Source of the DNA: Kiritimatiellia bacterium
Lineage (GTDB): Bacteria; Verrucomicrobiota; Kiritimatiellia; UBA8416; JAWODU01
Length of the DNA: 64,000 nucleotides
Reading direction: 5' to 3'
NCBI GenBank assembly: GCA_046483125.1
Contig: JAWODU010000019.1
Span: forward strand, 1,911 to 65,910
The notes below the pieces were generated by a model. The model was given only the letters and a program-made list of their open reading frames with translations. It searched no databases and had not been told where the DNA came from. The position numbers and the translations under genes are program-made. Below, piece after piece: positions 21,696 to 47,333 of the stretch. Position 1 is the first letter of the stretch; the number at the start of each line of letters is the position of its first letter.

Positions 21696-21749
21696 ATTAT
21701 TTCCTCCAACTGACAGGCTTCTCGATCTTGCAGATCAATTCTTTTCGCT

Positions 21750-21942: not shown

Positions 21943-22009
21943 GTTATTAATATACACCTTGTTTGGATTTTTAGCAATCTTCTCTTTTGACACAACGCAA
22001 TCGGGGGAT

Positions 22010-22204
22010 TCATACCCGGCGTAGGCCGCATCTGCCATACCCGCCGGTCTGCCCCAGCTGCCTCCAGCCACTGACCCGGTACGCCGTGCCTCGAAAAAAC
22101 TGCCCGTCAACAAAGCTCTCGGCCACCAGGATCGGATGTTTATACCGCTGTTGCCAGTCGTTACTCAGACGCTGCAGGCACAACTTCATCGTCCGGCTGG
22201 CCAA
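22010..22204 (-). mobile_element. Possible IS/transposase-associated remnant (DUF4338-like C-terminal fragment)
   Basis: The 64-aa ORF VAESFVDGQFFRGTAYRVSGWRQLGQTGGYGR resembles the conserved C-terminus of IS-associated proteins. No intact transposase or terminal inverted repeats were recognised. Confidence 0.25.
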
Positions 22205-22390
22205 GTTCGCATAGTGACAGTCCGGCAGGAGCTTATGTGTTTTTTAAGGGACGCTGACCCCGTGGCCCCGTCGCTGATTTGTCTTCTTCGCAAGGCAGAA
22301 TAATGCTTAAATACTAATTCAAGGGTTGGCCCCACGGTCCACCACGGTCCATCTTAAAACGAGCATTTCCTTCCGTTTGTCCAAGTAAGT

Positions 22391-23908
22391 TCAGCGGATA
22401 ACACGCCGGTCGGAGATTTTCAGCAATTCTTCGGCCATGGCGTCCGAGCGCGCCACCCGCGGCACCTTGTGCTGGCCGCCCAGCTTGCCTTTTTCCTTCA
22501 TCCACTCGTAAAACGTGCCGGGAGACACCGTTATCATGACCGGCGGCCTGAGCCCGTAATCGCCGCGGCGATGGGTGTCGTAGTCCTCGCTCCGCGCGCG
22601 GATTTCGGAGTCCACGGTTTTCATGAATTCGCTTTCGTTTCCGGGCGGCGAGTCGAATTCAAATATCCACCTGTGAACCGGAACGGGTTCTTCAACAGAA
22701 GGATAACGCGGCCACACGGTGTAGTCGCTGAGAACCGCCCCGGTTTTTTCGCAGGCTTTTCCCACGGCTTTTTCCATCATCTCAAGGGTCACGTGTTCTC
22801 CGAAAGCGCTCAAGCCGATCCTGGTGCGCCCCGCGAATCTCACCCGCGGCGGCTGTACGCTTTCGAAACGTATCACGTCGCCAAGAGGATAGGCCCAGAT
22901 GCCGCCGTTTGTGGAAACGACTAAAGCGTAGTCCCTGCCCGTTTCCACCTCGCCGAAATGCAGGCGCGGCGCTTTCGCGTCTCCGGCCCGCTCCGCGGGA
23001 ATGAATTCGTAGTAGACACCGTTGTCCACGAGCATCCGCAACGGCCCGCCCGGTTCTTCCTGTATGGCCGTCATTCCCGCTTCGGAGGATGAATACGTGT
23101 CCATGTAAGCTATTCGGCGGCCTATGTATTCTTCAAAGGACTTCCCATAGGGTTCAAAGGCCATGCCGTATGACACGAAACACGCAAAGTCCGGCCACAG
23201 GGTCCCCGCGTTGCCGCCTCCCGAAGCAATCATTTCCTTAAACAGAAGCGCCGCCCAGGAAGGACAGGCGGACAGCACGCGGACCCTGGAGGTCAGGTAA
23301 CGTTCCACGATCATACGAATCTTCCGCTCCCAGTCGGCAACACACGCTATGTCCGCCTCCGGCAGATACCTGCCGTGCGCGTAAAACGGTATGTGTCTGC
23401 CCATTATTCCGGAGGCGTCGCCGTAGAGGCTTCTGCCCCGTTTCCTCAGGGAAGTCGAACCGCCGAGGTAAAAGAATTTCCCGTCCAGAATCGTCTCCGC
23501 GCCGACCCGCCGCGCCATAAAGGCGAGAAGCGCCGCGCCGGACCTCTTGTTGGAAGCGATGGCTTCTCTGGTAACAGGCAGGAGCTTGTTGCCGGCGGTA
23601 GTGCCCGAAGAAAGGGCAAAATAGCGGACGTGTCCCGGCCAGGTCACGTCGCGGGCGCCTTCAAACGCCTCGTGCCATTCGGGGGAGGCGGTTTCGTAGT
23701 CGGCAAGGGGCACGGCCGAGCGGTATTCTTCGGGGGTACGGATCTTCGAAAAACCGTGTTTACGGCCCAGGCGCGTAGCAGCCGCGCGCCCAAGCAGGCC
23801 GCGCAGAAGACGCGACTGGGAAGCGGCCGGATCGCGGCCGGATTCTTCCAGCTGTGCCGTGCGGCGCCGTATTGCCGCCTCTACCGCCAGTACCGCGAGT
23901 TTTTTCAC
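22391..23908 (-). CDS. GH3-family acyl-acid amido synthetase (adenylate-forming)
   Basis: 505 aa. SSGTTAGNKLLPVT AMP-binding motif and overall GH3-like architecture. Confidence 0.8.
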   Translation of the reverse strand: MKKLAVLAVEAAIRRRTAQLEESGRDPAASQSRLLRGLLGRAAATRLGRKHGFSKIRTPEEYRSAVPLADYETASPEWHEAFEGARDVTWPGHVRYFALSSGTTAGNKLLPVTREAIASNKRSGAALLAFMARRVGAETILDGKFFYLGGSTSLRKRGRSLYGDASGIMGRHIPFYAHGRYLPEADIACVADWERKIRMIVERYLTSRVRVLSACPSWAALLFKEMIASGGGNAGTLWPDFACFVSYGMAFEPYGKSFEEYIGRRIAYMDTYSSSEAGMTAIQEEPGGPLRMLVDNGVYYEFIPAERAGDAKAPRLHFGEVETGRDYALVVSTNGGIWAYPLGDVIRFESVQPPRVRFAGRTRIGLSAFGEHVTLEMMEKAVGKACEKTGAVLSDYTVWPRYPSVEEPVPVHRWIFEFDSPPGNESEFMKTVDSEIRARSEDYDTHRRGDYGLRPPVMITVSPGTFYEWMKEKGKLGGQHKVPRVARSDAMAEELLKISDRRVIR

Positions 23909-27640: not shown

Positions 27641-28570
27641 GTGTCTTCTTCAGCTTCAGCAGAACCCGCACCGCTCATCGCGGAGATAAACAGCCTCCGC
27701 AGGTCCGCAAACGCCGTCATACTGGCCCACAATTACCAGATCCCCGAAATCCAGGACATAGCCGACTTCACCGGCGATTCCCTCCAGCTCAGCCGCCGCG
27801 CGGCCGGCACCGACGCGGATGTCATTGTCTTCTGCGGCGTTCACTTCATGGCTGAAACCGCCGCCATCCTCTGCCCCGGGAAAAAAGTCCTGATCCCCGA
27901 CCCGGAGGCGGGCTGTCCCATGGCGGACATGATCACGGCCGAAGAACTGCGCAGGATGAAATCGGAACACCCGGGGGCGAAGACGGTCTGTTACGTCAAC
28001 AGTACGGCCGAAGTCAAAGCGGAAAGCGACGTCTGCTGTACGTCGTCAAACGCGACAGCGGTTGTAGAATCGCTGTCTGAAAGCGAAGAAATAATTTTCG
28101 TTCCCGACGGAAATCTCGGAGAACACGTCCGGGATAAAACCGGGCGGCCTCTCCTGCTGTGGCCCGGCTATTGCCCCACCCACGTTGCCATTACCCCCGG
28201 GGCAATACTCGCCGTTAGGAACGCGCACCCGGACGCCGTGGTCATAGTGCATCCCGAGTGCCCGGCTCCCGTTCGGAAGACAGCCGATGAGATACTGTCC
28301 ACCGGCGGCATGCTCAAGTTCGCGCGCTCATCGCCCAAGAAGGAATTCATAGTCGGCACCGAATCGGGTCTTCTTTACACGCTGGAAAAAGCAAATCCCG
28401 GCAAGCTCTTTTACGGAATGCCCGAGCCGGCGGTATGCGCGGATATGAAACGTATAACCCTGGAAAAAGTGCGGGCCTCTCTCGCGGAAAAACGCTGTGA
28501 GGTAAACGTTCCCGAACACACGGCCCGGGGCGCCCGTAAAGCCGTGGAGCGCATGCTTTCAGTTGCGTAA
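27641..28570 (+). CDS. nadA: Quinolinate synthase
   Basis: 309 aa from a GTG at 27641 (RBS AGGAGG). NadA motifs VILAHNYQ and FCGVHFMAE with the three-fold pseudo-repeat architecture. The track ORF from 27377 is a spurious extension through the repeat. Confidence 0.9.
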   Translation: MSSSASAEPAPLIAEINSLRRSANAVILAHNYQIPEIQDIADFTGDSLQLSRRAAGTDADVIVFCGVHFMAETAAILCPGKKVLIPDPEAGCPMADMITAEELRRMKSEHPGAKTVCYVNSTAEVKAESDVCCTSSNATAVVESLSESEEIIFVPDGNLGEHVRDKTGRPLLLWPGYCPTHVAITPGAILAVRNAHPDAVVIVHPECPAPVRKTADEILSTGGMLKFARSSPKKEFIVGTESGLLYTLEKANPGKLFYGMPEPAVCADMKRITLEKVRASLAEKRCEVNVPEHTARGARKAVERMLSVA

Positions 28571-28586
28571 TGAAGCACTCACGCCT

Positions 28587-29636
28587 ATGCCGAACGCACC
28601 GACAACAAAAATAATCGCCACACTGGGGCCGGCCAGCGATACATACGGCGTAATTCGCCGCATGGTCAGACAGGGCCTCGACATTGTCCGTCTTAACTTT
28701 TCCCACGGCAGTCACGCCTCGCATCTGCGTCTTCTTCAGACCGTCCGGAAAATCAACGCTAAATACCGCCGCCGCGTAAAAATAATGCAGGATCTCGAAG
28801 GCTTCCGCATACGCGTGGGACGGATTGAAAGCGAGGAGGGAATGGAACTGGCCAAGGGCAGGCGGATTGTCCTTAACAGGTCCGCGAAGGCATCAGGGGC
28901 TTCAACCGTACCCTTCGATTATTCAGGCGACCTGAACCGGATACCGAAAGGACAGCTTATATTCATAGACGACGGCAACCTGGTCCTGAGAGCCGATTCC
29001 AGAACCGCTCATACCGTGAGAACCACCGTTATCGAAGGCGGAAGGCTCTTCAGCCGCAAAGGGGTGAACATGCCCGGCGTAAAGCTGGACTTCCCGGTGC
29101 CCACGGAAAAGGACCGCGAGGACATCGAATTCGGAGTTGAGCACGAAGTTGATTTCATCGCGCTTTCCTTTGTGCGGACCGGCGCGGACGTGGCGGCCGT
29201 ACGCGACTTGGTGAAAAAACGTCATCCCGACTGCGGCATAATAGCCAAGATAGAATCGCGTGACGCCGTCAGAAACCTGGAATCTATCATAAAAGCGTCC
29301 GACGGCATTATGATCGCCCGGGGAGACATGGGCATAGCCATGCCCGTCTACAAGGTGCCCATGATTCAGAAGGACATTATCCGCAGATGCAATGAGTGCG
29401 GTAAACTCGTGATAACCGCCACTCAGATGCTCGAGAGCATGGCCCGGAGGAAACGCCCCAGCCGCGCGGAAGCGGCCGACGTGGCAAACGCGGTTCTGGA
29501 CGGCACCGACTGCGCCATGCTTTCGGGTGAAACGGCTTCGGGCAAATACCCTGTGGAATCGGTGAAAATGATGAACGATATCATAAAATACACGGAATCG
29601 CGGAGGTCTTCGGCCGGTGAAGGATACCGGAGATAA
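28587..29636 (+). CDS. pyk: Pyruvate kinase, short form lacking the C-terminal domain
   Basis: TKIIATLGP, the NFSHG motif, MIARGDLG-like MIARGDMG and TQMLESM. The protein ends after the A domain (about 350 aa). Confidence 0.8.
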   Translation: MPNAPTTKIIATLGPASDTYGVIRRMVRQGLDIVRLNFSHGSHASHLRLLQTVRKINAKYRRRVKIMQDLEGFRIRVGRIESEEGMELAKGRRIVLNRSAKASGASTVPFDYSGDLNRIPKGQLIFIDDGNLVLRADSRTAHTVRTTVIEGGRLFSRKGVNMPGVKLDFPVPTEKDREDIEFGVEHEVDFIALSFVRTGADVAAVRDLVKKRHPDCGIIAKIESRDAVRNLESIIKASDGIMIARGDMGIAMPVYKVPMIQKDIIRRCNECGKLVITATQMLESMARRKRPSRAEAADVANAVLDGTDCAMLSGETASGKYPVESVKMMNDIIKYTESRRSSAGEGYRR

Positions 29637-30549
29637 GAAACCGTCCACCAAGCGCTTCAGGCGCGCGGCGCTCGCGCTTATCGCCGCGGCGGTAATTGCC
29701 GCCTGCTGGTTCGGGGGGCCCGCCGGTATCCTGCTCAGGAAAATCCTTTCCGGATATCTGCCTTACGAAACCCGTGAAGTAACCGTCACAGCCATCAGGC
29801 GCCGGAAAGCGTCCGAAAGCCTCAAAAGGGGCCTGTCTCTCCGGATAGAGCCTGAGCGGCTTATGGAAATAATCACCGCCGCGTATCCGGCCGCGGCGGC
29901 TCTGCCCCGGAAACTGGTCGAAAAAGGACTGTGCGTCGACGGTTACTGGCGGCCCGGGGAGTTCTCCCTGCCCGGAGGCGAATCGATACCGCTGAAACTC
30001 ATCCTGGAAGACACCCGTAACGGACCGGTGCTCGAAGGCAGGCTTCCGGTTGAGGAGGTCAACAGATCGCTGGAAACGGAACTTGTCGAGAAACTGAGGC
30101 GGAAGAAGAAATGGTTTCTTGGACATTATGAAGTAGTTTATGAGCCCGAATTCGTAACGTTCGCGCTGAGGTCACAGTCCGGTCCAGTTCTTACTCCCGT
30201 CACGAGCCGTAAATTCTTTTTCGAGGCCTCCGGACGCGTGAAAATATGGTTTGAGGACAGCCTGATTGCCGCCCGCAAAACCGCCGACGTAAAGAACCTC
30301 TTCGGGACAATAAACGTGAAAGTCGTCCGCGAAGACTCCCGGACGCGTCTTTCGTACGAAGCAGTCGTCGACATTCTGGAAGCCGATCTGCACGACACGC
30401 CGCCGTGGCTGGAAAGAGACCTGATTGACGACCTTCGGGAATCCCTGGAAAAATCACTGAACCGCGACAAGAACAGGAAACGCGTGGAAAGTCTCCCGAT
30501 TCCGGAATGGGCGCCCATGGATCTCGCAGTGAATCTAAGATTCGACTGA
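29617..30549 (+). CDS. Membrane-anchored hypothetical protein
   Basis: 310 aa with one N-terminal TM helix (AALALIAAAVIAACWF) and no recognisable family. Confidence 0.45.
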   Translation: MKDTGDKKPSTKRFRRAALALIAAAVIAACWFGGPAGILLRKILSGYLPYETREVTVTAIRRRKASESLKRGLSLRIEPERLMEIITAAYPAAAALPRKLVEKGLCVDGYWRPGEFSLPGGESIPLKLILEDTRNGPVLEGRLPVEEVNRSLETELVEKLRRKKKWFLGHYEVVYEPEFVTFALRSQSGPVLTPVTSRKFFFEASGRVKIWFEDSLIAARKTADVKNLFGTINVKVVREDSRTRLSYEAVVDILEADLHDTPPWLERDLIDDLRESLEKSLNRDKNRKRVESLPIPEWAPMDLAVNLRFD

Positions 30550-33500
30550 ACCATCTGCGGCGAGATACACGGTGATCTCGCTGACGTCGCCTTCGCGGAT
30601 GCGGCGGGCAAGCGGGTCATCGACGGAGCATCCGCTTGCCTCCGCTGAACCGCCGTCTTCGAACCGGAGCACGTAACGCGCGGGAGAGACCCCGTCTTCG
30701 CCGAAGGTGTTCTTCTTCCCGGGGTTCACGTAAACCACCAGGGTCCTGTTGAAAAGCACGAAGGCGTAGTGATCGGCGGGCAGAACGGATTCTCTTGTTT
30801 CTCCATCCCTGAGCCAGTTGACCTTCCGTTCCGCGCGGGCGAACAGCCACGCGGGCAGTACGGGCCGGAGACGGAAACGAAGGCGGCCCCCGCCGTCCGT
30901 CTCAAAAGGCGCGTTGCCGCAGTTGGCGTGTATCCACATGTCGTGAAACTCCGCAGTGGCCCCGCTGAGACGCGCATAGAAACCCCGGCCGTGCCACTCC
31001 CGGCACGGATGCGCGGAAGTGACCAGGAAGGAGGAATTCTCCAGGACCGAGCGGCCGTAGCGTTCCGGGGGCTGGAAGGGAATGAGGGCTTTTCGCATGT
31101 CCCGCCAGAACTCGGAATGCAGTCCGGATTTCAGGACCTCCAGCAGGAACTTGTACTCCATGTGCAGCCATATGGACGCGTTTTCGAGATACCCCGGCGG
31201 CCAGGCGCATGCCGCTCCCATCTGTTCGTAAACTCTGCCGAGGGGCTCGCTGACCCGGTACATTTCAAGCTCGGTATCGTAAAGCGGGGAGTTGCGCACC
31301 GCCAGATACTGGCTCCGGGCTTCATCCTCATCCCGGGAGGACCTGAGGTAATGCATCGGCCCTTCCAGAAAGTCCGTCAGGCCGTGCTGTTCAAATCGTC
31401 CGGGCACCACCACGACGCGGCCGTCTTTTTTCACGGTCTCGTACTCGACAAGCCGGTGATAGAAGTAGCTCGTAATAAGACCGGTTTTCCCGTCAATGGC
31501 GCGTTCAATGCCGCTGTCCAGTTTTTCGCGGCACGCCTTCAGAAAAGCCGCGGCCGCGTTCGCCCCAAGTGTCTTTTCCTCCCCGTCTATGCCGTCACGT
31601 GTTGAAGCACGGAAGGTTTCCTTGGCGGTGTTCGTGCGGTCCCAGTATTCAAACAGCGAATCCGGATCGTCGCCCGCCGTATCCCGGAGCGCCGCGCTCA
31701 CCGCGTCCACGAGGTCCGCGACTTCCCCGGGCAGTCGTATTTCAGCCGACCCGGCGTCCGGGAGGACGTCCGTCAACAGGTCCACAAGCCTTCGAAGCTC
31801 TATAGTTTCGTTTATGCTGGACCCGAAGTGGCGGGACATATCGTGCAGAGCGTCGTTCCAGTTGGCTTTTCCCGCTTCGAATTCAATGCCCATTCCGAAG
31901 GGATCCAGCGTGGCCATTTTCACCGGCACCAGCGCGAAGAGCCTCTCGAACAGAGACGTTTCGTAGACTTCTCCGGCGCCGCGGCCGATCCTTACTCCCT
32001 GGACCGGAAGCGGCAGAGGCGGCCAGGGCTCGCGGTTCGTATCCAGGAAATTCTTTTGTACCGGTATGCCGTCTTCAATCACTACGCGTTCTGAACGCGG
32101 TCTGACAAACGCTTCGCCGCGGCAGAAACGGTAAGTCCTGTCGTCGAAGAAAAGTTCTTTCCTGCAGTCGGGATAGAGGGAGAGAAAGCTGTCTATGAAA
32201 TCCAGGTTGTAGTGGAAATGGTCCGTCCAGAAACCGCTGATGGTGTCGGCTTTGTGCACGGCAAAGCTTTTCGCCATTACCCGGCCGAGAAATTCCAGCG
32301 GCTGTACGGCGGTTTTAATTCTGTTTTCGGCAACGGCCGTAAGAAGCCCTCCCGGGGTGAATTCTCTTTTCAGTATCTCCGTCAACACGGCCGTACCTTC
32401 ACCTCCCGCCCCGGCTTCGGCAGCGGCTTCGCCCGGAACGACGCCCTCTTCAAGCCTGAACACAGTTCCGAAAAGGTAATGCGGATTGTAACCGTCCAGG
32501 AAAATCATATCTGTATAGGTCCGGATATTGCTCTCGAGGACGTCGGGGTTCACGTAAATGGCGTTGCGCTGGTTCTGCGCTATATCCCGGTACCCGCCGT
32601 TGCCCTGGGACCAGAAACACGGTTCCACTTCGAAATGATTGTAGTCGCGCTCAAGGTCCCCGTGAATTCTGGAATAGACGTAAAAGACCCGTTTGCGGCC
32701 CGAAGCATCCGGAAGGTTAACCGGCAATCCGCCCCGCAGTACGTTATCCAGAAAAGTCGCCCGGCAGTAGTTGTCGTACGTAACGTCCGCGGAGAAAACG
32801 GCGCAGGGATTGGTAATCTCACTGATCAGGCGGCGGTTTTCCTCCCGCTTCTGCTTAAACCAGCCCGGGGTACACGCGGAGGCGGAGATACTCTCCAGTT
32901 TTGCCCGCCCGTTGACGTGCCCGTAAAGCGCGTGAATTGCGACGGTTTCGCCGGGGGGGATTTCCACGGATTTTGCCATCATCGCGGTGAAGAGAAGCCC
33001 TTCGCAAAGCTGGCCGCGCGGCACACTGAAAGGCGCGTCGAGAAAAGCGCGGGGAAGGTCAAGGCCGGTGTCCGGCCCGAACACGCATGCGGGATCCACA
33101 ATCGGCGGCATCAGCCCCTCTTCGTCACAGTGAAGGGCGAAATGTCCGCCGCCTTCCGCGCCCTGCGCCGACAGTTTGCGGGTCTGGAAGACGGGCGCGC
33201 GGTTTTCCAGGTTGGCCGCCACCGCCGTGCCCGAACGCGTGTTCATCATGTGCTTGATGTCCATGTGGTCAAGGCCGAACGGCAGGACCCTTGGAAGACC
33301 GTCGATCCATTCAATTGAGACTGTTTCACTGCCGGTATTGGTGACGCTGACGCGGCGGGCAAGAGCAGGGTACAGTTCCCGCGGGACAGTCATGAAGGTA
33401 ACGTTGACTTCAACGTTGAGACGCGGGTTTATTTCTTTCAGGTTCAGCTCGGCAGGATTAAAGGAAAGAGTAGATACACAGCCGTACTCGCGGGGACCCC

Positions 33501-33792
33501 TTCCGGGCCGGAACGGTTCGTAATACTGCCCCGCGACTTTCAGGAACGTGCGGAAACCGCCCAGGGGCGTCAACCGGTAAGCGTCCACCGCCGGTGAAAA
33601 ATCCAGCATGGCTCCGGACTTGTTGCGCACGCCGAATGAACTCACGCACTGTCCGCGGTTGACGAAGAAACACCAGAGCGGCACGCCGTCCAGGCCGGCC
33701 ACTCCCGGAAAGAAATTCGCGAAAGGCGCGGCGTTGTTGTAGTTCTCGATGGTTGTGGAACCATCTTCGGAGATATCATAGCTCACTTTCAA
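30535..33792 (-). CDS. Large (1085 aa) uncharacterised protein, possibly (alpha/alpha)6-barrel glycoside hydrolase/phosphorylase-like
   Basis: Long ORF with a soluble composition and weak resemblance to toroid glycosidase/phosphorylase families. Last gene of a co-directional array. Confidence 0.5.
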   Translation of the reverse strand: MKVSYDISEDGSTTIENYNNAAPFANFFPGVAGLDGVPLWCFFVNRGQCVSSFGVRNKSGAMLDFSPAVDAYRLTPLGGFRTFLKVAGQYYEPFRPGRGPREYGCVSTLSFNPAELNLKEINPRLNVEVNVTFMTVPRELYPALARRVSVTNTGSETVSIEWIDGLPRVLPFGLDHMDIKHMMNTRSGTAVAANLENRAPVFQTRKLSAQGAEGGGHFALHCDEEGLMPPIVDPACVFGPDTGLDLPRAFLDAPFSVPRGQLCEGLLFTAMMAKSVEIPPGETVAIHALYGHVNGRAKLESISASACTPGWFKQKREENRRLISEITNPCAVFSADVTYDNYCRATFLDNVLRGGLPVNLPDASGRKRVFYVYSRIHGDLERDYNHFEVEPCFWSQGNGGYRDIAQNQRNAIYVNPDVLESNIRTYTDMIFLDGYNPHYLFGTVFRLEEGVVPGEAAAEAGAGGEGTAVLTEILKREFTPGGLLTAVAENRIKTAVQPLEFLGRVMAKSFAVHKADTISGFWTDHFHYNLDFIDSFLSLYPDCRKELFFDDRTYRFCRGEAFVRPRSERVVIEDGIPVQKNFLDTNREPWPPLPLPVQGVRIGRGAGEVYETSLFERLFALVPVKMATLDPFGMGIEFEAGKANWNDALHDMSRHFGSSINETIELRRLVDLLTDVLPDAGSAEIRLPGEVADLVDAVSAALRDTAGDDPDSLFEYWDRTNTAKETFRASTRDGIDGEEKTLGANAAAAFLKACREKLDSGIERAIDGKTGLITSYFYHRLVEYETVKKDGRVVVVPGRFEQHGLTDFLEGPMHYLRSSRDEDEARSQYLAVRNSPLYDTELEMYRVSEPLGRVYEQMGAACAWPPGYLENASIWLHMEYKFLLEVLKSGLHSEFWRDMRKALIPFQPPERYGRSVLENSSFLVTSAHPCREWHGRGFYARLSGATAEFHDMWIHANCGNAPFETDGGGRLRFRLRPVLPAWLFARAERKVNWLRDGETRESVLPADHYAFVLFNRTLVVYVNPGKKNTFGEDGVSPARYVLRFEDGGSAEASGCSVDDPLARRIREGDVSEITVYLAADGSVES

Positions 33793-33810
33793 GGGTACGA
33801 TGCTTTCCTG

Positions 33811-34326
33811 TTACCTGATCTCGCGGCCCGGCTTTTCGATACGCGACTCTATCACGGGAAGAACGTCGTACATGCGTATCAGCATCTGCTCTTCGGTTGC
33901 GTCGGGCGAAACCACGAATATAACATTGCCCCGGACGAAGTACCTTAACCCCGCCATTTCCGTAACGACATCAAGAGTTTCTCCCAGCTTCAGTCCCCTG
34001 GCCCTGAGGGTGAGCGCGGGCAGGGTGATTTTTTCTCCGGCGCGCGGTTTCAGGGCCAGCACTATGTTGACGCCCTTCATATTTCCCGCGCCGGGATCGA
34101 GGTCCGCGCTTTTTGCCGTGAGAAAATCAAGGATATCCCGAACATCCGCCTGCCTGAAATCGATCTTCGGTATGGTTATATTTTCAAGTTTCCAGTTTGT
34201 GAGCCGGGTTCTTGCGGCTTCGCTGTTTTCACCCTCGCCGCACATGCCGGAAAGAGCGGAAGCGCATAGAACAAGAACAAATAAACCGCAAAACGGAAAA
34301 CGGTCACTGGATCTAAATAAACTCAT
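33811..34326 (-). CDS. Small secreted protein or lipoprotein with a single secretin-N/STN-like domain
   Basis: 171 aa. The signal peptide is followed by IDFRQADVRDILDFLTAKSADLD...NIVLAL...ITL...LGLRYFVRGNVIFV, which fits the secretin N-domain pattern. Confidence 0.5.
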   Translation of the reverse strand: MSLFRSSDRFPFCGLFVLVLCASALSGMCGEGENSEAARTRLTNWKLENITIPKIDFRQADVRDILDFLTAKSADLDPGAGNMKGVNIVLALKPRAGEKITLPALTLRARGLKLGETLDVVTEMAGLRYFVRGNVIFVVSPDATEEQMLIRMYDVLPVIESRIEKPGREIR

Positions 34327-34327
34327 C

Positions 34328-35791
34328 CTATTTGCCGGGGTCCCACCTGCCTACGAGCTTCTCGAAGGCAGGGCCGGGAAAGTTCTCCTTGAAAATCCTG
34401 TAATACCACATTTCCTTCGGAGAATTGAGCCTGTAACCGCCTTCCGTGTTCCGGCTCTCTTCCGTGAATGCGTCCTTTTCGAGCTTCCTGCCGGCTATTT
34501 CGTCCATCAGGTCGTCCGTTCCCGTACCGGCGGAAAATCTCAGTTTGACCCTCCTGTATATTCTGTCGGGCAGAAGGTCTCTGAAAGCTTCGCGAAGTAT
34601 CCATTTTTCCACGAGCGTACCGTTCCCGGACGGATGAATTTTCCATTGCACAGGCGCTGAGTCCGCGAAAGCTATCACGTGCGGATCGATGAAAGGAGTC
34701 CTGTAATTTATGCCGTTACCCATCATCGCCCTGTCTAGCCGCTGTACGGCAGTGTTGTAAGCTATGGCCACGAGCTTGTGCATCATATGCAGGCGGTCGA
34801 GATCCGTGGGCAGTTCCTTCAGAAGATGATATCCTCCGAAAAGCTCGTCTCCCCCTTCCCCGCTCAAGATGCAGTTTGTGAATCCGCTTGCCAGCCTGGA
34901 AGCGAACAGATTTGATATCGCCCCGCTGACGCAATCCTCGTCGAATGATTCCAGGATCCGGACCGCTTCCGGCACCATTGTCTCTATTTCCGAAGCGTCG
35001 AAAATGTGGACCTCGTGTTTCATGTTAAGGTGTTTAGCCATCAGTTCCGCGTTCTCCAGGTCCTGCGCCCCTTCCACCCCAACGGTCACCGCGGGCACTT
35101 CCGCTCCAATCTCTCTTGCCGCGGCGGCTATTACCGAACTGTCCAGGCCGCCGCTCAGAAGGCAGGCGCCGACGGCCCCGTCCTCTATGCGGCGTTTCAC
35201 CGATTCGCTGAGAATTACGCGCAGTTTTTCAGCGGCTTCCCCCGCTTCGGCCGGCATGGTTATGTCCGGCTGGCGCGCCACGTACCCGCCGGTTCCGTGC
35301 CTCGCCGAATACGTAGTTGAAGGATGCATTTCCCACACGTCCTCAACCAGCCCGGACAGCGCCTTCATTTCGGAAGCGAAACACAGCGCGCCGTTCTTAG
35401 CCGTTCCAGCGTACAGGGGACGCACACCGACGGGATCCCTGGCAAGAACCACGTCTTTGCCGTCGTAAACCGCGCTGGCGAATACCCCCTCCAGATAGGC
35501 GGGAAAAGCCAGTCCGTGTTTCTCAAACTCATCCATCACAACATCCGCGTCGGACTGTCCCCGCGGCCGGTCGTTGTAAATTTCCCCATCCAGCAAAACA
35601 GCAATGTTGTCCTTTTGGGTAAACCCGTTCCCCCGCGCCGGAGAAAGACGCCCGGCGCAGACACCCAGGGCCGCCTGTTCGTACTGCCTGATTTCACGGC
35701 TGTCGGCTCCCCGGTGCCGCATGGTTTCGATCATACCGGCTGCACGTTCTTTATCGCTTCCCGCCCCGAACATTCCCGCTATTCCCGCCAT
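34328..35791 (-). CDS. Asparagine-synthase-family amidotransferase homologue lacking the N-terminal Cys nucleophile
   Basis: 487 aa. Starts MAGIAG rather than MCGI. SGGLDSS PP-loop ATP pyrophosphatase motif. Its stop overlaps the downstream start by 1 nt. Confidence 0.8.
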   Translation of the reverse strand: MAGIAGMFGAGSDKERAAGMIETMRHRGADSREIRQYEQAALGVCAGRLSPARGNGFTQKDNIAVLLDGEIYNDRPRGQSDADVVMDEFEKHGLAFPAYLEGVFASAVYDGKDVVLARDPVGVRPLYAGTAKNGALCFASEMKALSGLVEDVWEMHPSTTYSARHGTGGYVARQPDITMPAEAGEAAEKLRVILSESVKRRIEDGAVGACLLSGGLDSSVIAAAAREIGAEVPAVTVGVEGAQDLENAELMAKHLNMKHEVHIFDASEIETMVPEAVRILESFDEDCVSGAISNLFASRLASGFTNCILSGEGGDELFGGYHLLKELPTDLDRLHMMHKLVAIAYNTAVQRLDRAMMGNGINYRTPFIDPHVIAFADSAPVQWKIHPSGNGTLVEKWILREAFRDLLPDRIYRRVKLRFSAGTGTDDLMDEIAGRKLEKDAFTEESRNTEGGYRLNSPKEMWYYRIFKENFPGPAFEKLVGRWDPGK

Positions 35792-37370: not shown

Positions 37371-38128
37371 GACGCTTCCCGGTTAAGCTGTTTCAGTTGA
37401 TTCGCCGGTTTTTCAAACAGGCTTTTTACAAAATCGGAGGCGGGGCGCTGAAGGATGTCATCTTTTGTCCCTACCTGTTCCAGCCGGCCCTCATGCATCA
37501 CCGCCACGCGGTCGGCCAGTGTCAGCGCTTCGAAAATATCGTGGGTAACGAAAATAATCGATTTGCTGATTTCCCTCTTCAGCGAAAGGAATTCCTGCTG
37601 AAGCTCGTCCCTGGTCAGCGCGTCCAGGGCGCCGAAAGGCTCGTCCATCAGGAGGTATTTCGGATCGGCCGCCAGACCCCGCGCAACTCCCACCCGCTGT
37701 TTCTGTCCCCCGGAAAGCTGATCGGGGTATTGAGAGCCGTACCGGTCGGGGGGCAGTTTAACCAGCTCCATAAGCTTCCGTGAACGATCACGGCGTTTCT
37801 GCCGGTCCCAGCCAAGAAGGCGCGGCACGGTTTCAATGTTTTCCTCAACGGTCATGTGAGGAAACAGGCCGATGCCCTGGAAAACATATCCGATGGACCT
37901 GCGAAGTTCTACCTCGTCGCGGTCCATGATATTCCGGCCGTCCACCGTAATGATACCGCCCGAAAGTTCAATCAGGCGGTTGATCATCTTGAGCGTGGTG
38001 GTCTTGCCGCATCCGGAGGACCCCAGCAGAACGAGCGTTTCATCCTCTTCAACGGTCAGGGAAACGCCGTCCACCGCGTATGTACTGCCGCCGTCAAAGG
38101 ACTTTCTGACTTCCTCGAGCTCAATCAT
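37358..38128 (-). CDS. ABC transporter ATP-binding protein (OpuAA/ProV-like, no CBS domains)
   Basis: 256 aa. Walker A GSSGCGKTT, signature LSGGQKQRV and Walker B LLMDEP. Confidence 0.9.
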   Translation of the reverse strand: MIELEEVRKSFDGGSTYAVDGVSLTVEEDETLVLLGSSGCGKTTTLKMINRLIELSGGIITVDGRNIMDRDEVELRRSIGYVFQGIGLFPHMTVEENIETVPRLLGWDRQKRRDRSRKLMELVKLPPDRYGSQYPDQLSGGQKQRVGVARGLAADPKYLLMDEPFGALDALTRDELQQEFLSLKREISKSIIFVTHDIFEALTLADRVAVMHEGRLEQVGTKDDILQRPASDFVKSLFEKPANQLKQLNREASWNS

Positions 38129-38976
38129 GTCCGGGATTCCGTCGAAGGCGTTTTGAGGGTGAAGTCCTCGGGAATTTCTCCGAACCTGACGAGACCTTCG
38201 ATAATTCCCGAAACATAGTAACCATTCAATTCGCCCATTCCCTCCGCCACCCGCAGGAGATGCTCCATGCCGTTTGAACGCATTGCCTCTTTCACGGCGG
38301 TTTTTACTTCGGGAATGGCGTTTCGCACTACTATGGCCCTGTACCCCGCCGTCAGGGGAAGCAGATCGTTCCCGCTGTCTCCGCAGTAAATAATTTCCTC
38401 TTTTTGAACTTTCATGGATCCCCGCAGGTATTCCAGAGCTTCAAGTTTACTGGCGGCGCGAGGCAGTACGTCCAGAAGACCCCGGCCCCTTGTTTCGTCG
38501 ACGCTGTAGATAACGCGGAAATCCGGACAGATCTCTCCAATAGCTTTCTTTACCGCTTCGACAGTATCGGACCCCTTTTCCGGATGGTCCAGGTAATAGC
38601 TCAATTTGAACTCGTTCTGATTCCGCGCTTCCTGGAGCCGGAGATCCGCCAGCGAGGCCAGGGCGTTTTTGAAAGCTTCGACGTCCCAGTTGCGCGTCGA
38701 TTCCTCGATTAAACGGATGTACCCTTTGTCTTCGGTGAACTCCCTTCCGTCCAGGTCGTATATTTTCGTGCCCACCTCCGCCACCGCGTACAGCGGCAGG
38801 GGAGGATCGTATTTTTCCATGCCTTCGAGTATCTGGTCGCGGTTGCGGCCGGTTACGTAAATCAGCGGAATTTCCCGTTTGCGGACGATTTCGCCGAACA
38901 GCCGCATGGAGTTATCGTATTCCTGTTTCCCGTTGGGGAAAAGGGTCCGGTCCAGGTCGGTGGCAATCACCGTCAT
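38125..38976 (-). CDS. HAD-IIB phosphatase, sucrose-6-phosphate-phosphatase-like
   Basis: 283 aa. DLDRTL (DxDxT) motif and an SPP-like cap. Translationally coupled to the flanking genes. Confidence 0.7.
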   Translation of the reverse strand: MTVIATDLDRTLFPNGKQEYDNSMRLFGEIVRKREIPLIYVTGRNRDQILEGMEKYDPPLPLYAVAEVGTKIYDLDGREFTEDKGYIRLIEESTRNWDVEAFKNALASLADLRLQEARNQNEFKLSYYLDHPEKGSDTVEAVKKAIGEICPDFRVIYSVDETRGRGLLDVLPRAASKLEALEYLRGSMKVQKEEIIYCGDSGNDLLPLTAGYRAIVVRNAIPEVKTAVKEAMRSNGMEHLLRVAEGMGELNGYYVSGIIEGLVRFGEIPEDFTLKTPSTESRT

Positions 38977-38991
38977 GGTTCGTTCCTCCGG

Positions 38992-41508
38992 TTACTCTTC
39001 AAGGATTTCCTTGATGTCTCTTGTGCACATCCCGGGCGAAGCCTGGCAGATGTAAAGGCCGATCTGTTCGTACCCCCCGCATTCCTGGCTGTACGGCAGG
39101 AACTCGAAGAAGAGACCCGCGCCCGGACCGTTGGCCGTCGTAACGTTGAAAGCGACTTCCCGGCCCAGCATAAGCAGTATTCTGTGCATCGCCCTTGAAG
39201 CATCGTGCCAGCCCTGGGCCACGGCCTCCAGTTCCTGGTCGTTCAGCTCGAAAATGTGGGACTTCTCCGTGTCTTTCACCAACAGCATCATGTCGTAGGG
39301 ACGGCGCATGAAGTAAGGCACGGCCAGGACTGCCGGGCCGTAGTCACGCAGGGTGAATTCCGGAGGATTTGTCTCCTGCATGTAAGCGGAAAAGAATTTG
39401 CCTTCCTTTTCCCGGAATTTCACCAGGTCGTCGTTTCTCCGCGGCATGACGTTGGCGTAGACTATCTGCTGATGGCCGTGGGCTATCGATCCGCCCACCA
39501 GCCGCCCGTGATTTTTGATAATTGAAACGTACCTGTCTTCCCGCCCTCCGTTATCCCCGGAAAGCAGAACTTTTTCCAGCTTCCCCAGTCTCCGCATAAC
39601 TATTTTACAGTCCGATACCGGCATATTGTGCCAGTCCCTGTCCTGGTAGGAAGAAGTCCACTGCAGAAAATGACAGCCGGACACTTCTTTTCCCTCCGGA
39701 CCGCCGCCGGTCTTCGAGCCCTTCTGTTTCCGGCTTTCCTTTCCGTCGGGACAGACCACGGGAAACAGGTTGAAGTTTATGAACGTGAAACCCTGGCTCA
39801 GATCCGCGACGTCCACAGCCCCGGTGGTCTTTCCCTTGGAAATAATGGAAGGGGCCCTGTTGGGATCCTCCTGGGGCGCTTCTTCCACGTTCCCCGATTC
39901 GTGGGGCCGGCGGGCCCTTGCCAGACTGTACAGGATGCGGTCGCCGTTACGCGGGTCGACCTGGTATCTTTTTTCGGGCCGGTAATCCCCGATATCGGGC
40001 TCTTCCTTCGCCAGTTTTATAATCCCGTCCCGGTCCAGTCTTTCGATGTTTTCGTTGCGGAGTATGCCCTTCAGTTTGTCGCGGGAAAAAGAAAAGCGAA
40101 TCTGCAGTTCAACCGGCTTCAGTTCTATCCCGATGCTTTTCAGGAACTGGGTGCTCAGGTTCTCCCATGTAAAATGAGGTATCGTGATATTGTAGGCTTT
40201 TCTGCCCATCTCCCTGCGCAGTGAATCGTCGCTCAGCAGTATTTCCAGCGCGCCGGCGAAGCCTTCAACGCTGTTGGCCGGCACCACAATGACCCCGTCT
40301 CCCCGCCGCACCTTTTCTCCGCCGTCTACAGGCACCTCTTCGGCTTCCCTGCCCAGGAGATGCTCCACGGCGAACGGAACAAGGTCGCTCGCCACGGCCG
40401 GAACGCCCGTGGCCGCCGCCTCCTCAACCGACATTCCGAAGCCTTCCATTACCGAAGGCGTGCAGTACACACTGCTTGCCGCGTATATCTTCGGAAGAAC
40501 GTCCCATACCGAACCGACGACTATGACGTCGTCCTCCACTTTCAGCTCCGAAATCAGCCCTCGAAGTTTCTGGGCCAGTTCCCTCTTGTTGTCGTCTATG
40601 GAGACTACAAGGAGGCTGTCTTCCGCCTTTTCATGCATCCGGGCGAAGGCGCGAATCAGAATGTCCTTCTTCTTGGTGTCGTCGGTCCTGCTGATCTCGG
40701 TTATGATCCTGCGCTTCTTTATTTCTTCGGGCTTCAGGCGGCTGTGCTCGCTGAAGAAGCACCATATCTCGCTGTCGTGAGAGAGGTCCGCGGGGTGAAA
40801 ACGCCTGGGATTGACGCAGGGCGGCAGAAAGAGATCGGTGTCGTATTCGTAATCGTTTTTCAGCGAATCTCTGATAACCGATGACGTGGCGGCGATATCG
40901 TCCACGGTTTTGACGATGCCTTTTTCTTCCTCTATGCGTTCGTCGATGCGCAGGGATTCCCATGTGGACCGGTCTACGTTGCGTTTCTTCAGCGCTCCCA
41001 GGGAATGGGGTATCCAGATGTGCTTCTGATTGTACGGCAGGCGCTGATTCAGCAGAAGGCCCAGCTTCGCCCCGTCCCAGTAATGGGAAATGATCAGATC
41101 TACCTGCGTGTCCTCCTGTATCACGTACTGTTCCAGGTTTTCCGCCAGTTTCGGAAGCTGTTCATTCATGTCTTCCTTGCGGACGAATTCCTTTTTGTCG
41201 TCCTCGACGTATAGAATCCTCTGGAGTTCGTCCTGATAATCGAGTCCCCTCCGCAGAAGCCCCGTGTTGGGATGCAGATAACCTCCCCTGTTTACTATGG
41301 TGACCTTGAACCCGGCCCTGACCAGGGCGTGTGTCATCTGGTTGACGAAAACGTTCTGCCCTCCCGTGTCGGGAAGTCCCGGTATGACGTCCCACTGATG
41401 AATACCGTGATTGGTTATCATCAGCAGATGGGGGCGTTTTGAAGCCAGAAAATCCTTGTGAAATCTTCTCCTGCGAATCTGCCTTTCGGACTGCGGAATA
41501 TCCAGCAC
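38992..41508 (-). CDS. Fusion protein: sucrose-phosphate-synthase-like GT4 glycosyltransferase plus C-terminal GalT-like (HIT superfamily) nucleotidyltransferase domain
   Basis: 838 aa. The N-terminal HGIHQWDVIPGLPDTGGQNVFV is the SPS/GT4 hallmark. The C-terminal KNHGRLVGGSIAHGHQQIVYANVMPRRNDDL aligns with the GalT active-site region (NPHPHGQIWAN) and an upstream Cys pair. Confidence 0.7.
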   Translation of the reverse strand: MLDIPQSERQIRRRRFHKDFLASKRPHLLMITNHGIHQWDVIPGLPDTGGQNVFVNQMTHALVRAGFKVTIVNRGGYLHPNTGLLRRGLDYQDELQRILYVEDDKKEFVRKEDMNEQLPKLAENLEQYVIQEDTQVDLIISHYWDGAKLGLLLNQRLPYNQKHIWIPHSLGALKKRNVDRSTWESLRIDERIEEEKGIVKTVDDIAATSSVIRDSLKNDYEYDTDLFLPPCVNPRRFHPADLSHDSEIWCFFSEHSRLKPEEIKKRRIITEISRTDDTKKKDILIRAFARMHEKAEDSLLVVSIDDNKRELAQKLRGLISELKVEDDVIVVGSVWDVLPKIYAASSVYCTPSVMEGFGMSVEEAAATGVPAVASDLVPFAVEHLLGREAEEVPVDGGEKVRRGDGVIVVPANSVEGFAGALEILLSDDSLRREMGRKAYNITIPHFTWENLSTQFLKSIGIELKPVELQIRFSFSRDKLKGILRNENIERLDRDGIIKLAKEEPDIGDYRPEKRYQVDPRNGDRILYSLARARRPHESGNVEEAPQEDPNRAPSIISKGKTTGAVDVADLSQGFTFINFNLFPVVCPDGKESRKQKGSKTGGGPEGKEVSGCHFLQWTSSYQDRDWHNMPVSDCKIVMRRLGKLEKVLLSGDNGGREDRYVSIIKNHGRLVGGSIAHGHQQIVYANVMPRRNDDLVKFREKEGKFFSAYMQETNPPEFTLRDYGPAVLAVPYFMRRPYDMMLLVKDTEKSHIFELNDQELEAVAQGWHDASRAMHRILLMLGREVAFNVTTANGPGAGLFFEFLPYSQECGGYEQIGLYICQASPGMCTRDIKEILEE

Positions 41509-41541
41509 TGTAACTGTGCTCCTTTCTGTTATCTCGTTTAC

Positions 41542-45866: not shown

Positions 45867-47333
45867 TCATTCTACACCGGGTGTACGGATCTCCGGGCAG
45901 GTTTTCAGAATATCGCTCCGCAGAGACGGCTCTATCAGTTCGGGCGCCTGCCCCTTGCGCACCTCGGCCACGAAGGCCCTTGCCCTGGACAGGGCGTCGT
46001 CATCCGGCCCCATGCTTTCGCGCCTGTCCCGGTTGGAGAGTTTCGGCTCGAAAAATTCGCCGCGCATATATCTGATCGTGTGCTCCTCCGCGAGGTAATC
46101 TTTCCCCGGCCCCTTTTTGATCATTACGTCGGTTGCCAGGGTGCCCCTGTCCACCTCGATTCCCCTGAGTACTCTCTGGCACATCCCCAGTATTTCGTTG
46201 TCCATCGCAAGCTTTTCGTAGGAGACCGTAAGGTCCGTTTCCATCAGCCCGGCAATATCGTGAATATAATTCGCCCCGCTCATGGCCACCAGCAGACTGG
46301 ACATTGCGCTCTCGTACGCCGCCTGGATATCCACTTCTTTGGCGTCGGTCGTTCCGCCGGTCGAATACAGAGGTATCTCGAAATACTGGGCCATTTGAGA
46401 AACCGCGGCGTTTATCATGGCCCTTTCTATGGCGCCGCCCACGTGGTTCATGGTGCGGAGATTCGTGACCGATCCCACGCTCCCGCATATGCCGGGAGCC
46501 CCCCTGCGCACCGACTGAACCAGCGCTATCCCGCCGAGTGTTTCGGCAATGTGGGTCAGGACGTTCCCGGCCAGTGTTATCGGAGATGTGGTTCCGCATA
46601 TCGGCTCGGTAGGCATTACAACCGGCAGGCCCTTCCCCGCAAGGTAACAGCTTATTTCGCCGTAGTGGTCGTCTATTTTAAAAGGGCTGATAACCAGCGT
46701 AATGAAAGATACAAATGGCTTCTCGGCCAGCGCCTCGGCGCCGCCGGCCAGTTTTTCCGCGATTTCAACGGCCCGACGGCATCCGTTCATGGTGTATATA
46801 CCGCCCATCACGTGCTTGGTGGTGTTGTCAAAGGCATGAAAGAACCGGTTGGCGTCGATTTCCTCCCTCTCTTCTATGTCGTTGGGAAACACGTTAATGG
46901 TAAAAAGATGGATATTCTCAAGAGCCTGCACCATACGGGCGTTAAGTATGACGTCGGTAACCGTCGAAGGCCGCCTTTCCCCGGTGTCAGGGTCCAGTAC
47001 GTATATCGCCGTTCCCCCGGTGCCGTAATGGACGCGGTTTTTTTCGAGCACGCAGTCGGTTTTTCCGTCACGCGAGTAAAGAGTTACGCTTGAAGGGTTG
47101 GAGGAAACCGCGTCTTCAACCAGGCTCCGGGACAGCTTGACCGTGGACGTTTCCTCGTCAACTTCGGCTCCCGCATTCCTGAAGGCCTCCCTTGCGGCCT
47201 TTGAATAGACCAGCATGCCCGCCTTTTCCAGAATCTCGAAAGCCGATTCGGCTATTTCCTTTACATCCCGGTCCGAAAGGGGCCTGTACAGCGATGACCT
47301 GAGCCCGTGTTTTTCATGTTTCAATTCAGTCAT
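45867..47333 (-). CDS. MttB-superfamily (non-pyrrolysine) methyltransferase homologue 2
   Basis: 488 aa, paralogue of the downstream gene. No adjacent corrinoid-protein gene is visible. Confidence 0.8.
   Translation of the reverse strand: MTELKHEKHGLRSSLYRPLSDRDVKEIAESAFEILEKAGMLVYSKAAREAFRNAGAEVDEETSTVKLSRSLVEDAVSSNPSSVTLYSRDGKTDCVLEKNRVHYGTGGTAIYVLDPDTGERRPSTVTDVILNARMVQALENIHLFTINVFPNDIEEREEIDANRFFHAFDNTTKHVMGGIYTMNGCRRAVEIAEKLAGGAEALAEKPFVSFITLVISPFKIDDHYGEISCYLAGKGLPVVMPTEPICGTTSPITLAGNVLTHIAETLGGIALVQSVRRGAPGICGSVGSVTNLRTMNHVGGAIERAMINAAVSQMAQYFEIPLYSTGGTTDAKEVDIQAAYESAMSSLLVAMSGANYIHDIAGLMETDLTVSYEKLAMDNEILGMCQRVLRGIEVDRGTLATDVMIKKGPGKDYLAEEHTIRYMRGEFFEPKLSNRDRRESMGPDDDALSRARAFVAEVRKGQAPELIEPSLRSDILKTCPEIRTPGVE

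Follow-up and report, generated by a model that had tools for sequence, protein, structure and literature searches.

A glutaminase-dead AsnB paralogue in a cross-phylum gene cassette with paired MttB homologues and a betaine-type importer

The DNA analysed here, referred to below as the window, is a 64,000-nucleotide (nt) stretch of a contig from a Kiritimatiellia metagenome-assembled genome (MAG; contig JAWODU010000019.1). It encodes a 487-amino-acid (aa) protein of the AsnB family, named AsnX here, which an initial annotation had placed in one operon with two downstream open reading frames (ORFs), one for a 171-aa secretin-N-like protein (p171) and one for a 1085-aa possible glycosidase or phosphorylase. 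The three ORFs exist as flagged, all on the minus strand (Table 1). Comparison with related loci reveals a different partnership, in which AsnX is the last gene of a conserved order that begins with two members of the MttB superfamily (MttB1, then MttB2) and continues with a class I S-adenosylmethionine (SAM)-dependent methyltransferase of 429 aa (MT429) and an OsmF/OpuC-like ATP-binding cassette (ABC) importer, predicted to take up quaternary ammonium compounds. The reading that we hold, taken as a whole, to be somewhat probable is that of a horizontally spread cassette in which AsnX serves as a glutamine-independent amide synthetase of the aspartate type, is interchangeable with a module containing a GCS2-family ligase, and has p171 and the phosphorylase beside it as passengers.

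AsnX aligns with E. coli AsnB (PDB code: 1CT9) over its full length (residues 14-478, E=1.5e-42). It shares with AsnB (1CT9; human ASNS, PDB code: 6GQ3) an N-terminal-nucleophile (Ntn)-type domain and a PP-loop synthetase domain, both recognized in the window protein (Table 1). It differs in being ~65 residues shorter, in having Ala2 in place of Cys1, and in falling below both curated AsnB cut-offs (304.2 bits against a cut-off of 499 for NF006949; 222.5 bits against 267.1 for TIGR01536). The protein begins with MAGIAGMF, and a catalytic cysteine after the initiator methionine is found in none of 76 locus-derived family members, which supports the initial statement that glutamine hydrolysis is impossible for this protein. 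The residue at this position is mostly Ala, with some Ser, Gly, Thr, Pro and Ile, down to 39% identity. MAGIAG or MAAIAG opens nearly all of the 120 best database homologues, and MCGI opens none of them. No alternative start in the window supplies a Cys2, because the TGA stop codon of the upstream OpuAC gene (35824-35822) is in frame ten codons upstream and there is no ATG, GTG or TTG in between. The family, with proteins of ~487 aa, retains 53-73% identity across Planctomycetes-Verrucomicrobia-Chlamydiae (PVC), Chloroflexota- and Spirochaetota-labelled loci, and a Desulfobacterota/Dehalococcoidia branch stands at 39-45%. Judged from these alignments, the loss of Cys1 is ancestral to the AsnX family.

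The glutamine pocket is altered beyond the nucleophile. The position of AsnB N74 is an invariant aspartate (D68) in AsnX, the equivalent of R49 is not conserved and is followed by a five-residue deletion in the glutamine-binding loop, and G75 and D98 are kept. Besides D68, the pocket of the N-terminal domain has a conserved D81 and, among the closer relatives, R53 and R75. The mean top-residue frequency is 0.57 in the N-terminal domain and 0.67 in the C-terminal domain; the pseudo-glutaminase domain is still conserved and is therefore not a decaying relic. In the synthetase domain the PP-loop LLSGGLDSS and residues E312, D315, E316, R351 and K416 (E348, D351, E352, R387 and K449 in 1CT9) are invariant in the 76 sequences, and the equivalents of AsnB Y357 and K429 are also kept. 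Seven differences are fixed in AsnX relative to both E. coli AsnB and the AsnB-like paralogues of the same loci: I52L, N74D, A282N, R324S, H381Y, V401T and Q451R. Among these, the arginine of the AsnB YDxTTxR loop (R324, 1CT9 numbering) becomes Ser289, which lies inside the segment ESFDEDCVSG. The motif ESF[DE]EDC is invariant in 76/76 AsnX sequences and brings two extra invariant acidic residues, E285 and D286, into the substrate loop. Going by its sequence, AsnX is an AsnB paralogue in which the nucleophile Cys1 and the oxyanion residue Asn74 are gone, and which keeps the complete PP-loop adenylation site and the acidic pocket for the α-amino group of aspartyl-AMP. The ~487-aa MAGIAG proteins now annotated as 'asparagine synthase (glutamine-hydrolysing)' are mislabelled.

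A Cys1 AsnB-like paralogue (MCGI..., NGEIYN) is located beside AsnX, upstream or downstream, in 15 loci (L006, L009-L011, L017, L019-L022, L030, L040, L051, L052, L061 and L079). The distance between the two genes is ~30-270 nt in 14 of them and ~2.3 kb in L052, and the two paralogues that were scanned scored 569-597 bits against the AsnB cut-off of 499. Their side-by-side occurrence argues for non-redundant roles and suggests that the pair represents an old tandem duplication whose functions have diverged.

Glutaminase-dead homologues of AsnB are already known, so that what is new here is the AsnX subfamily and its link to an MttB cassette. Beta-lactam synthetase (PDB code: 1JGT) and CarA (PDB code: 1Q15) are likewise AsnB-derived, with a glutaminase-dead N-domain and a reaction in which adenylation is followed by amide formation. 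This kinship could make AsnX an enzyme that cyclizes its substrate intramolecularly, as beta-lactam synthetase, carbapenam synthetase and lasso peptide cyclases do. The first and the last of these had been suggested by the initial annotation, and weak matches to such enzymes are indeed obtained (E=3e-24 for beta-lactam synthetase and E=4e-11 for CarA). However, these matches are far weaker than those to AsnB, and in 1JGT and 1Q15 the C-terminal domain alone aligns. The lasso peptide cyclase model NF033535 was rejected for AsnX at 91.8 bits against 525. A lasso B protein, a precursor peptide or clavam/carbapenem genes are not among the identified neighbours in the window or the loci, where they were not specifically searched for, and no antibiotic-cluster context was seen. 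A cyclase function is extremely unlikely in our estimate.

The genomic context of AsnX was surveyed in 80 genome loci around AsnX relatives, making 81 with the window, which were screened with the window proteins; the 65 related loci in which the flank extends to 6 kb or more are considered informative. MttB-family genes are found no more than 12.5 kb from AsnX in 47 of these 65 loci, and several of the others end early on the relevant side. The MttB-bearing loci are labelled Planctomycetota, Lentisphaerota, Kiritimatiellota, Verrucomicrobiota, Chloroflexota, Desulfobacterota, Elusimicrobiota, Armatimonadota, Latescibacterota and Spirochaetota. Of all 81 loci, 33 contain MT429, 32 the ProV-type ATPase, 29 the permease and 29 the OpuAC gene; in 18 loci, less than 250 nt separate AsnX from the end of an upstream OpuAC gene on the same strand. 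The position of AsnX directly downstream of the OpuAC/permease/ProV-type ABC system in the window had been recognized at the outset, with the betaine importer as a mere neighbour. The importer belongs instead to a conserved partnership with the two MttB homologues and the SAM methyltransferase, and AsnX, in contrast to AsnB, is set in MttB/betaine-transporter cassettes and not in amino-acid biosynthesis. The cassette has probably spread horizontally across phyla. From the record names, we infer that many AsnX carriers come from soda-lake, hypersaline or marine sediments.

In Dehalococcoidia-labelled, Elusimicrobiota-labelled and some other loci, AsnX lies within complete corrinoid methyltransferase operons, which encode a MetH-type activation domain, an MttB, a pterin-binding methyltransferase, a second MttB, a B12-binding protein and then AsnX. 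In Desulfobacterales, AsnX is accompanied by two MttB-like proteins of very high divergence, together with a DAO-family flavoprotein, a protein of the MBL fold and a CN-hydrolase. Genes similar to those for sucrose-phosphate synthase (SPS) and sucrose-phosphate phosphatase (SPP), a GH100 invertase, MscS channels and ProA recur around the cassettes, as do Mrp antiporter genes in Desulfurivibrio dismutans; the recurrence of MscS, sucrose-type genes, ProA and Mrp points to a compatible-solute or osmoadaptation setting. A full-text literature search found no description of the association between AsnX and MttB, and the cassette is apparently both widespread and undescribed.

The closest solved relative of both MttB1 and MttB2 is MtgB of Desulfitobacterium hafniense (E=1.6e-63 for MttB1). 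MttB2 is 27% identical to MttB1 and is its conserved partner in related loci. In MtgB, glycine betaine is contacted by Y97, R312, H348 and F356 (PMC13080624). With the numbering checked on the alignment, MttB1 has G-Y-D-D and MttB2 has S-Y-Y-T at these positions. The PVC-type orthologues keep both signatures, and the Dehalococcoidia-type proteins have G-Y-D-A and S-Y-C-N. Since none of the four contact residues is kept, MttB1 and MttB2 were rejected as glycine betaine enzymes of the MtgB type. A pyrrolysine-containing MttB was rejected as well: both ORFs are uninterrupted, and they score 396 and 258 bits against the TIGR02369 cut-off of 525. An Rfam PYLIS_3 match of 41 bits (gathering score 38) inside MttB1, at 46253-46352 on the minus strand, contains no UAG and encodes the local peptide PLYSTGGTTDAKEVD; it is most likely conserved coding sequence rather than a functional PYLIS. 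We classify MttB1 and MttB2, from their sequence relationships, as two new orphan non-pyrrolysine MttB subfamilies that travel as a pair. Their predicted substrate is a quaternary or methylated amine, which would be bound differently from glycine betaine in MtgB. The cassette resembles the D. hafniense MtgB system in its superfamily and in the genes that flank MttB1 and MttB2 in some phyla, which encode a corrinoid protein, an activation protein and a methyltransferase of the pterin-binding type. It differs in that MttB1 and MttB2 always occur as paired paralogues at such low identity, and in their association with AsnX or a GCS2/ProA-like module, a feature not known from any described MttB system.

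Homologues of MT429 (P0272-P0390) are 63-74% identical among the 120 best, whose labels span several phyla. An alignment of 22 members shows ~150 invariant columns, and no Pfam family scores above threshold. No match was obtained against PDB sequences, and a fold search with the AlphaFold2 (AF2) model returned generic class I small-molecule methyltransferases (RebM, TleD, phosphoethanolamine N-methyltransferase, SDMT). A B12-binding domain was considered for the C-terminal half and rejected, with no such family in Pfam or NCBIfam and no such fold in the model search.

A second variant of the cassette was found from the MT429 side. AsnX is absent from five of six MT429-centred loci (L165, L167-L170), which have genes for a ProA-like aldehyde dehydrogenase, a GCS2-family ligase and a DUF362 protein instead. 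The layout is ProA-like dehydrogenase, GCS2-family ligase, MttB1, DUF362/4Fe-4S protein, MttB2, MT429 and ABC importer, sometimes followed by MarC or MscS. The dehydrogenase of the one locus scanned scores 523 bits against the NF001221 cut-off of 289. MttB1 and MttB2 of this variant share 63-73% identity with their counterparts in the window, along with the G-Y-D-D and S-Y-Y-T residues (A-Y-Y-T in one MttB2). All 81 AsnX loci lack genes for the ProA-like, GCS2 and DUF362 proteins. The core of MttB1, MttB2, MT429 and the ABC importer thus seems to carry one of two alternative accessory modules, either AsnX or the GCS2/ProA-like set. We take both AsnX and GCS2 families to use ATP for activating an acidic amino acid at its side-chain carboxylate, as an adenylate in AsnX and as an acyl-phosphate in GCS2.

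AsnX is most likely an ATP-dependent, glutamine-independent amide synthetase that serves the cassette. In the proposed reaction, aspartate or a close analogue would be adenylated by AsnX at its side-chain carboxylate at the expense of ATP, and the activated carboxylate would then be coupled to a nitrogen nucleophile not derived from glutamine, either free ammonia or an amine handled by the cassette. The product would be asparagine or an N4-substituted, asparagine-like amide. At the level of the cassette, this ATP-dependent, carboxylate-activating step appears exchangeable, being provided by AsnX in one variant and by the GCS2 ligase, the ProA-like reductase and the DUF362 protein in the other. 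Functional analogues are GmaS and PuuA (gamma-glutamyl-amide synthetases) and Dph6 (diphthine-ammonia ligase), which likewise form amides with ATP as accessory enzymes of small-nitrogen-compound metabolism; they belong to protein families unrelated to AsnX, whose counterpart in the other variant is a carboxylate-amine ligase of the GCS2 type.

Several observations weigh against the cassette reading. About a quarter of the informative loci have AsnX without MttB nearby. The sole cultured carrier found, Desulfurivibrio dismutans AMeS2 (L059, 10001-11464), has no MttB within 10 kb, and its AsnX gene adjoins three genes for Mrp/NuoL-like antiporter subunits. AsnX can therefore function outside the cassette. 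Arg324 of AsnB, as reportedly found by Boehlein et al. 1997, is needed for the formation of beta-aspartyl-AMP; since it is replaced by Ser in AsnX, aspartate may not be the acyl substrate. The mutual exclusivity of the two variants rests on the six MT429-centred look-ups, and co-transcription of the twelve genes around AsnX in the window (Table 1) is deduced from their spacing. In the sixth MT429-centred locus, L166, the gene in the position of AsnX encodes a bona fide AsnB and precedes a GT4 gene and a GH100 invertase gene; the presence of AsnB there fits plain asparagine synthesis as the required activity.

AsnX could accordingly do no more than make asparagine from free ammonia, as a housekeeping or nitrogen-assimilating synthetase found close to MttB and betaine genes in a shared osmotic- or nitrogen-stress island. 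Besides the AsnB of L166, this is consistent with AsnB being the closest characterised relative, aligned in full length, with the conserved catalytic residues and acidic α-amino pocket of the synthetase site, and with the recurrence of osmoadaptation genes around the cassette. In addition, the C1A variant of E. coli AsnB (the protein in 1CT9) keeps ammonia-dependent activity. On the other hand, a Cys1 AsnB-like paralogue coexists with AsnX in the 15 loci listed above, Arg324 is replaced and the EDC motif invariant in every AsnX, and demethylation of the MttB type releases no ammonia. The patchy distribution, with 53-73% identity across unrelated phyla, also resembles that of an accessory, transferred gene. 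We regard a plain asparagine synthetase as possible, though not probable, and prefer a pathway role for AsnX.

The nature of that pathway role can be narrowed in part by comparing the two variants. One candidate would be a betaine-ammonia ligase comparable to Dph6, with AsnX amidating the imported betaine before MttB1 and MttB2, in which the carboxylate-binding Arg and His of MtgB are missing, demethylate the net-cationic product. The replacement of MtgB R312, H348 and F356 by Y/D/D in MttB1 and Y/Y/T in MttB2, the extra invariant acidic residues in the AsnX substrate loop, and the usual position of AsnX straight after the OpuAC gene are all in line with such a reaction. Yet MttB1 and MttB2 of the AsnX-less GCS2/ProA variant have essentially the same binding-site signatures, which implies that the MttB substrate is independent of AsnX chemistry. 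Furthermore, only about five positions of the synthetase domain differ systematically from AsnB, few for a switch from aspartate to betaine. Amidation of betaine by AsnX as a step ahead of demethylation is thus very unlikely. A broader proposal, which we put forward as speculation and consider rather unlikely, is that AsnX or the GCS2/ProA-like pair would carry out the ATP-dependent priming or capture step of a new anaerobic pathway for quaternary or methylated amines, built on the two MttB subfamilies, through beta-aspartylation of a cassette amine (comparable to gamma-glutamylation in the catabolism of methylamine and putrescine) or amidation of a betaine carboxylate. If true, it would imply a new reaction for the AsnB superfamily and substrates for two orphan MttB clades.

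To our knowledge, non-pyrrolysine MttB proteins are very numerous in anoxic environments, and the substrate has been established for only a few of them (glycine betaine, proline betaine, carnitine and gamma-butyrobetaine). The two orphan clades described here are widespread in anoxic sediments, many of them apparently saline. In the cassette they are joined, across phyla, by an importer of the betaine type, a SAM methyltransferase that is itself an orphan, and the AsnB paralogue with its dead glutaminase site. This cloneable set of proteins offers a testable handle on the methylated nitrogen compound that is processed and on the reason for an ATP-dependent, amide-forming or carboxylate-activating step. 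It also bears on whether the AsnB superfamily has chemistry beyond the formation of asparagine, beta-lactams, lasso peptides and hydroxamates. D. dismutans, with its lone AsnX, is a possible experimental system, and MT429 is an orphan enzyme worth characterising.

The two genes that follow AsnX in the window have separate affiliations. At its N-terminus, MSLFRSSDRFPFCGLFVLVLCASALSGMCGEG, p171 shows the n-region, h-region and ASA motif of a classical signal peptide. The initial description of p171 as a lipoprotein with a single secretin N/STN-like domain holds for the domain and fails for the lipoprotein: LVLC22 and SGMC29 misfit the lipobox [LVI][ASTVI][GAS]C, and the Cys is not conserved in stand-alone homologues. 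The score against Pfam STN is below threshold (E=0.005, 17 against 28.4), and the match to the PilQ-like Amuc_1098 model covers positions 243-379 of 805 (65.8 bits against a cut-off of 750). A secretin or Amuc_1098 outer-membrane protein was rejected, as the ORF stops at 171 aa and has no secretin pore domain. The AF2 model (mean predicted local distance difference test, pLDDT, 76.5; core >90) has the topology beta-alpha-beta-beta-alpha-beta-beta. A Foldseek search gave the N0 domain of PilQ as the best match (E=3e-3, probability 1.0), followed by XcpQ/GspD N0, DotD and PupA STN, with TM scores of 0.3-0.5. The modelled fold resembles that of PilQ N0 (PDB code: 4AR0), GspD/XcpQ N0 and the signalling domain of TonB-dependent transducers, proteins from which p171 differs in having neither a secretin pore domain nor a TonB-dependent barrel.

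A word-indexed homology search with p171 returned no match besides p171 itself, and an exhaustive HMMER search found 1421 relatives in a 50%-identity representative library, 298 of them at E<=1e-10. The ~100-residue domain often occurs in 2-5 copies per protein, in proteins of up to ~3100 aa (relatives P0122-P0270), and it represents a large, mostly unannotated family of periplasmic modules. A conserved R-x-Y-x-V-x-P tail at the C-terminus is common to the stand-alone secreted homologues of 160-190 aa. The existence of these homologues, the signal peptide of p171 itself and the start of the phosphorylase gene 18 nt downstream exclude the possibility, raised initially, that p171 is a fragment of a larger secretin gene. 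On the modelled fold, p171 is a complete single-domain N0/STN-like protein, periplasmic or secreted.

The 1085-aa protein matches no Pfam model. Its residues 14-986 align with the solved GH161 structures 9qqk (E=8.6e-191) and 9h8v (E=2e-190), which settles the choice left open at first in favour of a phosphorylase, and it is distant from GH149 (E=8e-6 in the PDB; 55.8 bits against 1150 for NF058639). We assign it by homology to the known family of GH161 beta-1,3-glucan phosphorylases, of which it is a new member. The characterised member of the family, PapP of Paenibacillus polymyxa, is predicted to be cytoplasmic, and family genes usually accompany beta-glucosidases, sugar ABC transporters or GH94 genes (PMC6484121). 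Like PapP, the window protein has no signal peptide; in contrast to the described GH161 loci, its gene is at the end of an unrelated cassette. Neighbours within 6 kb were recorded for GH161 relatives (33-43% identity) in 80 metagenome loci, and none of these loci had a p171-like, AsnB-like, MttB, GT4 or HAD neighbour.

These surveys bear on the initially implied proposal that AsnX, p171 and the GH161 protein work together in a single system, for instance for modifying or exporting a glycan or peptide. The genes are on the same strand with gaps of 1 and 18 nt, so co-transcription is likely. The first of these gaps had been given as a 1-nt overlap, and the junction AAA TAG g ATG is a 1-nt spacer. 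Nevertheless, p171 and GH161 lie beside AsnX in none of the 80 related loci, and the combination is unique to this contig among the 81 AsnX and 80 GH161 loci. The nearest stand-alone homologue of p171 is in an unrelated gene context, and a link to GH161 through the 1217-aa neighbour of that homologue was rejected, as that protein has no similarity to GH161. The cytoplasmic prediction for PapP, the absence of a signal peptide from the GH161 protein and that of a pore domain from p171 also argue against a joint system, to which we give very little probability. The original three-gene combination, which had seemed meaningful, is a local accident of little significance, with p171 and GH161 as lineage-specific passengers beside AsnX in the window alone. 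They are probably co-transcribed with AsnX yet stand outside its function.

The three genes form the 3' end of a string of 12 co-directional minus-strand genes spanning ~16.8 kb (47333->30535; Table 1). The intergenic gaps within the string range from -13 to +33 nt, with 30 nt between OpuAC and AsnX. A promoter and terminator scan of the string gave counts near the shuffled expectation and no clear operon boundary. The genes at 38125-42993, for an SPS-like GT4, a GT4-GalT fusion and a HAD phosphatase, interrupt the cassette between MT429 and the ABC genes in this contig only, and a homologue of the SPS-like GT4 was found in 3 of the 81 AsnX loci.

Table 1. Genes of the co-directional string in the window, in order of transcription.
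Feature	Description	Coordinates	Strand	Evidence
MttB1	Non-pyrrolysine MttB-superfamily methyltransferase homologue, 488 aa, first of the string	45867..47333	-	Pfam MTTB E=2.6e-88
MttB2	Divergent MttB-superfamily paralogue, 518 aa	44303..45859	-	Pfam MTTB E=2.6e-61
MT429	Class I SAM-dependent methyltransferase, uncharacterised family, 429 aa	43004..44293	-	Weak Pfam Methyltransf_25/31; motif ILDLGCGSADG
GT4	GT4 glycosyltransferase, sucrose-phosphate-synthase-like, 483 aa	41542..42993	-	Pfam Glycos_transf_1 / Glyco_transf_4; TIGR02472 sucr_P_syn_N E=7.5e-62, below cut-off
GT4-GalT	GT4 fused to a GalT-like hexose-1-phosphate nucleotidyltransferase region, 838 aa	38992..41508	-	Pfam GT4 49-457; NCBIfam galT-type 512-765
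HAD	HAD-IIB phosphatase, sucrose-6F-phosphate-phosphohydrolase-like, 283 aa	38125..38976	-	Pfam S6PP E=1.7e-43
ABC ATPase	ProV family without CBS domains, 256 aa	37358..38128	-	TIGR01186 proV E=6e-93
ABC permease	Betaine/choline type, 213 aa	36729..37370	-	BPD_transp_1; top models are choline and ProW permeases
OpuAC	OpuAC-family substrate-binding protein, 297 aa	35822..36715	-	Pfam OpuAC E=6e-69; closest NCBIfam OsmF, below cut-off
AsnX	AsnB-family amide synthetase (predicted), dead glutaminase site, 487 aa	34328..35791	-	Asn_synthase and GATase_7 domains
p171	Secreted stand-alone protein (predicted), one secretin-N0/STN-like domain, 171 aa	33811..34326	-	NCBIfam Amuc_1098_fam E=2e-18, residues 33-164
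GH161	GH161-family beta-1,3-glucan phosphorylase (by homology), 1085 aa, no signal peptide	30535..33792	-	PDB 9qqk 'GH161A' E=8.6e-191

Sugar-gene neighbours similar to those in the window were seen in L070 (GT4 and HAD) and in L166 (GT4 and GH100 invertase). The SPS-like GT4, the GT4-GalT fusion, the S6PP-like HAD and GH161, as a producer of glucose-1-phosphate, could together make up a route to a sugar-type compatible solute.

On the opposite strand, a pyruvate kinase ORF (28563-30549 region, plus strand) encodes 357 aa and covers positions 2-339 of a 476-position model, without the C-terminal domain. A plus-strand ORF of 310 aa with a hydrophobic N-terminus and no family match overlaps the end of the pyruvate kinase ORF and converges on GH161 with a 15-nt overlap. 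Further upstream in the window (region 19854-22900), 2 kb of DNA with a low G+C content (48%, against ~57-60% elsewhere) come after a gene for tRNA-Thr(TGT) (19854-19929). This stretch holds only small ORFs, one of them matching DUF6941 and the others without a family, and it may be a small integrated element.

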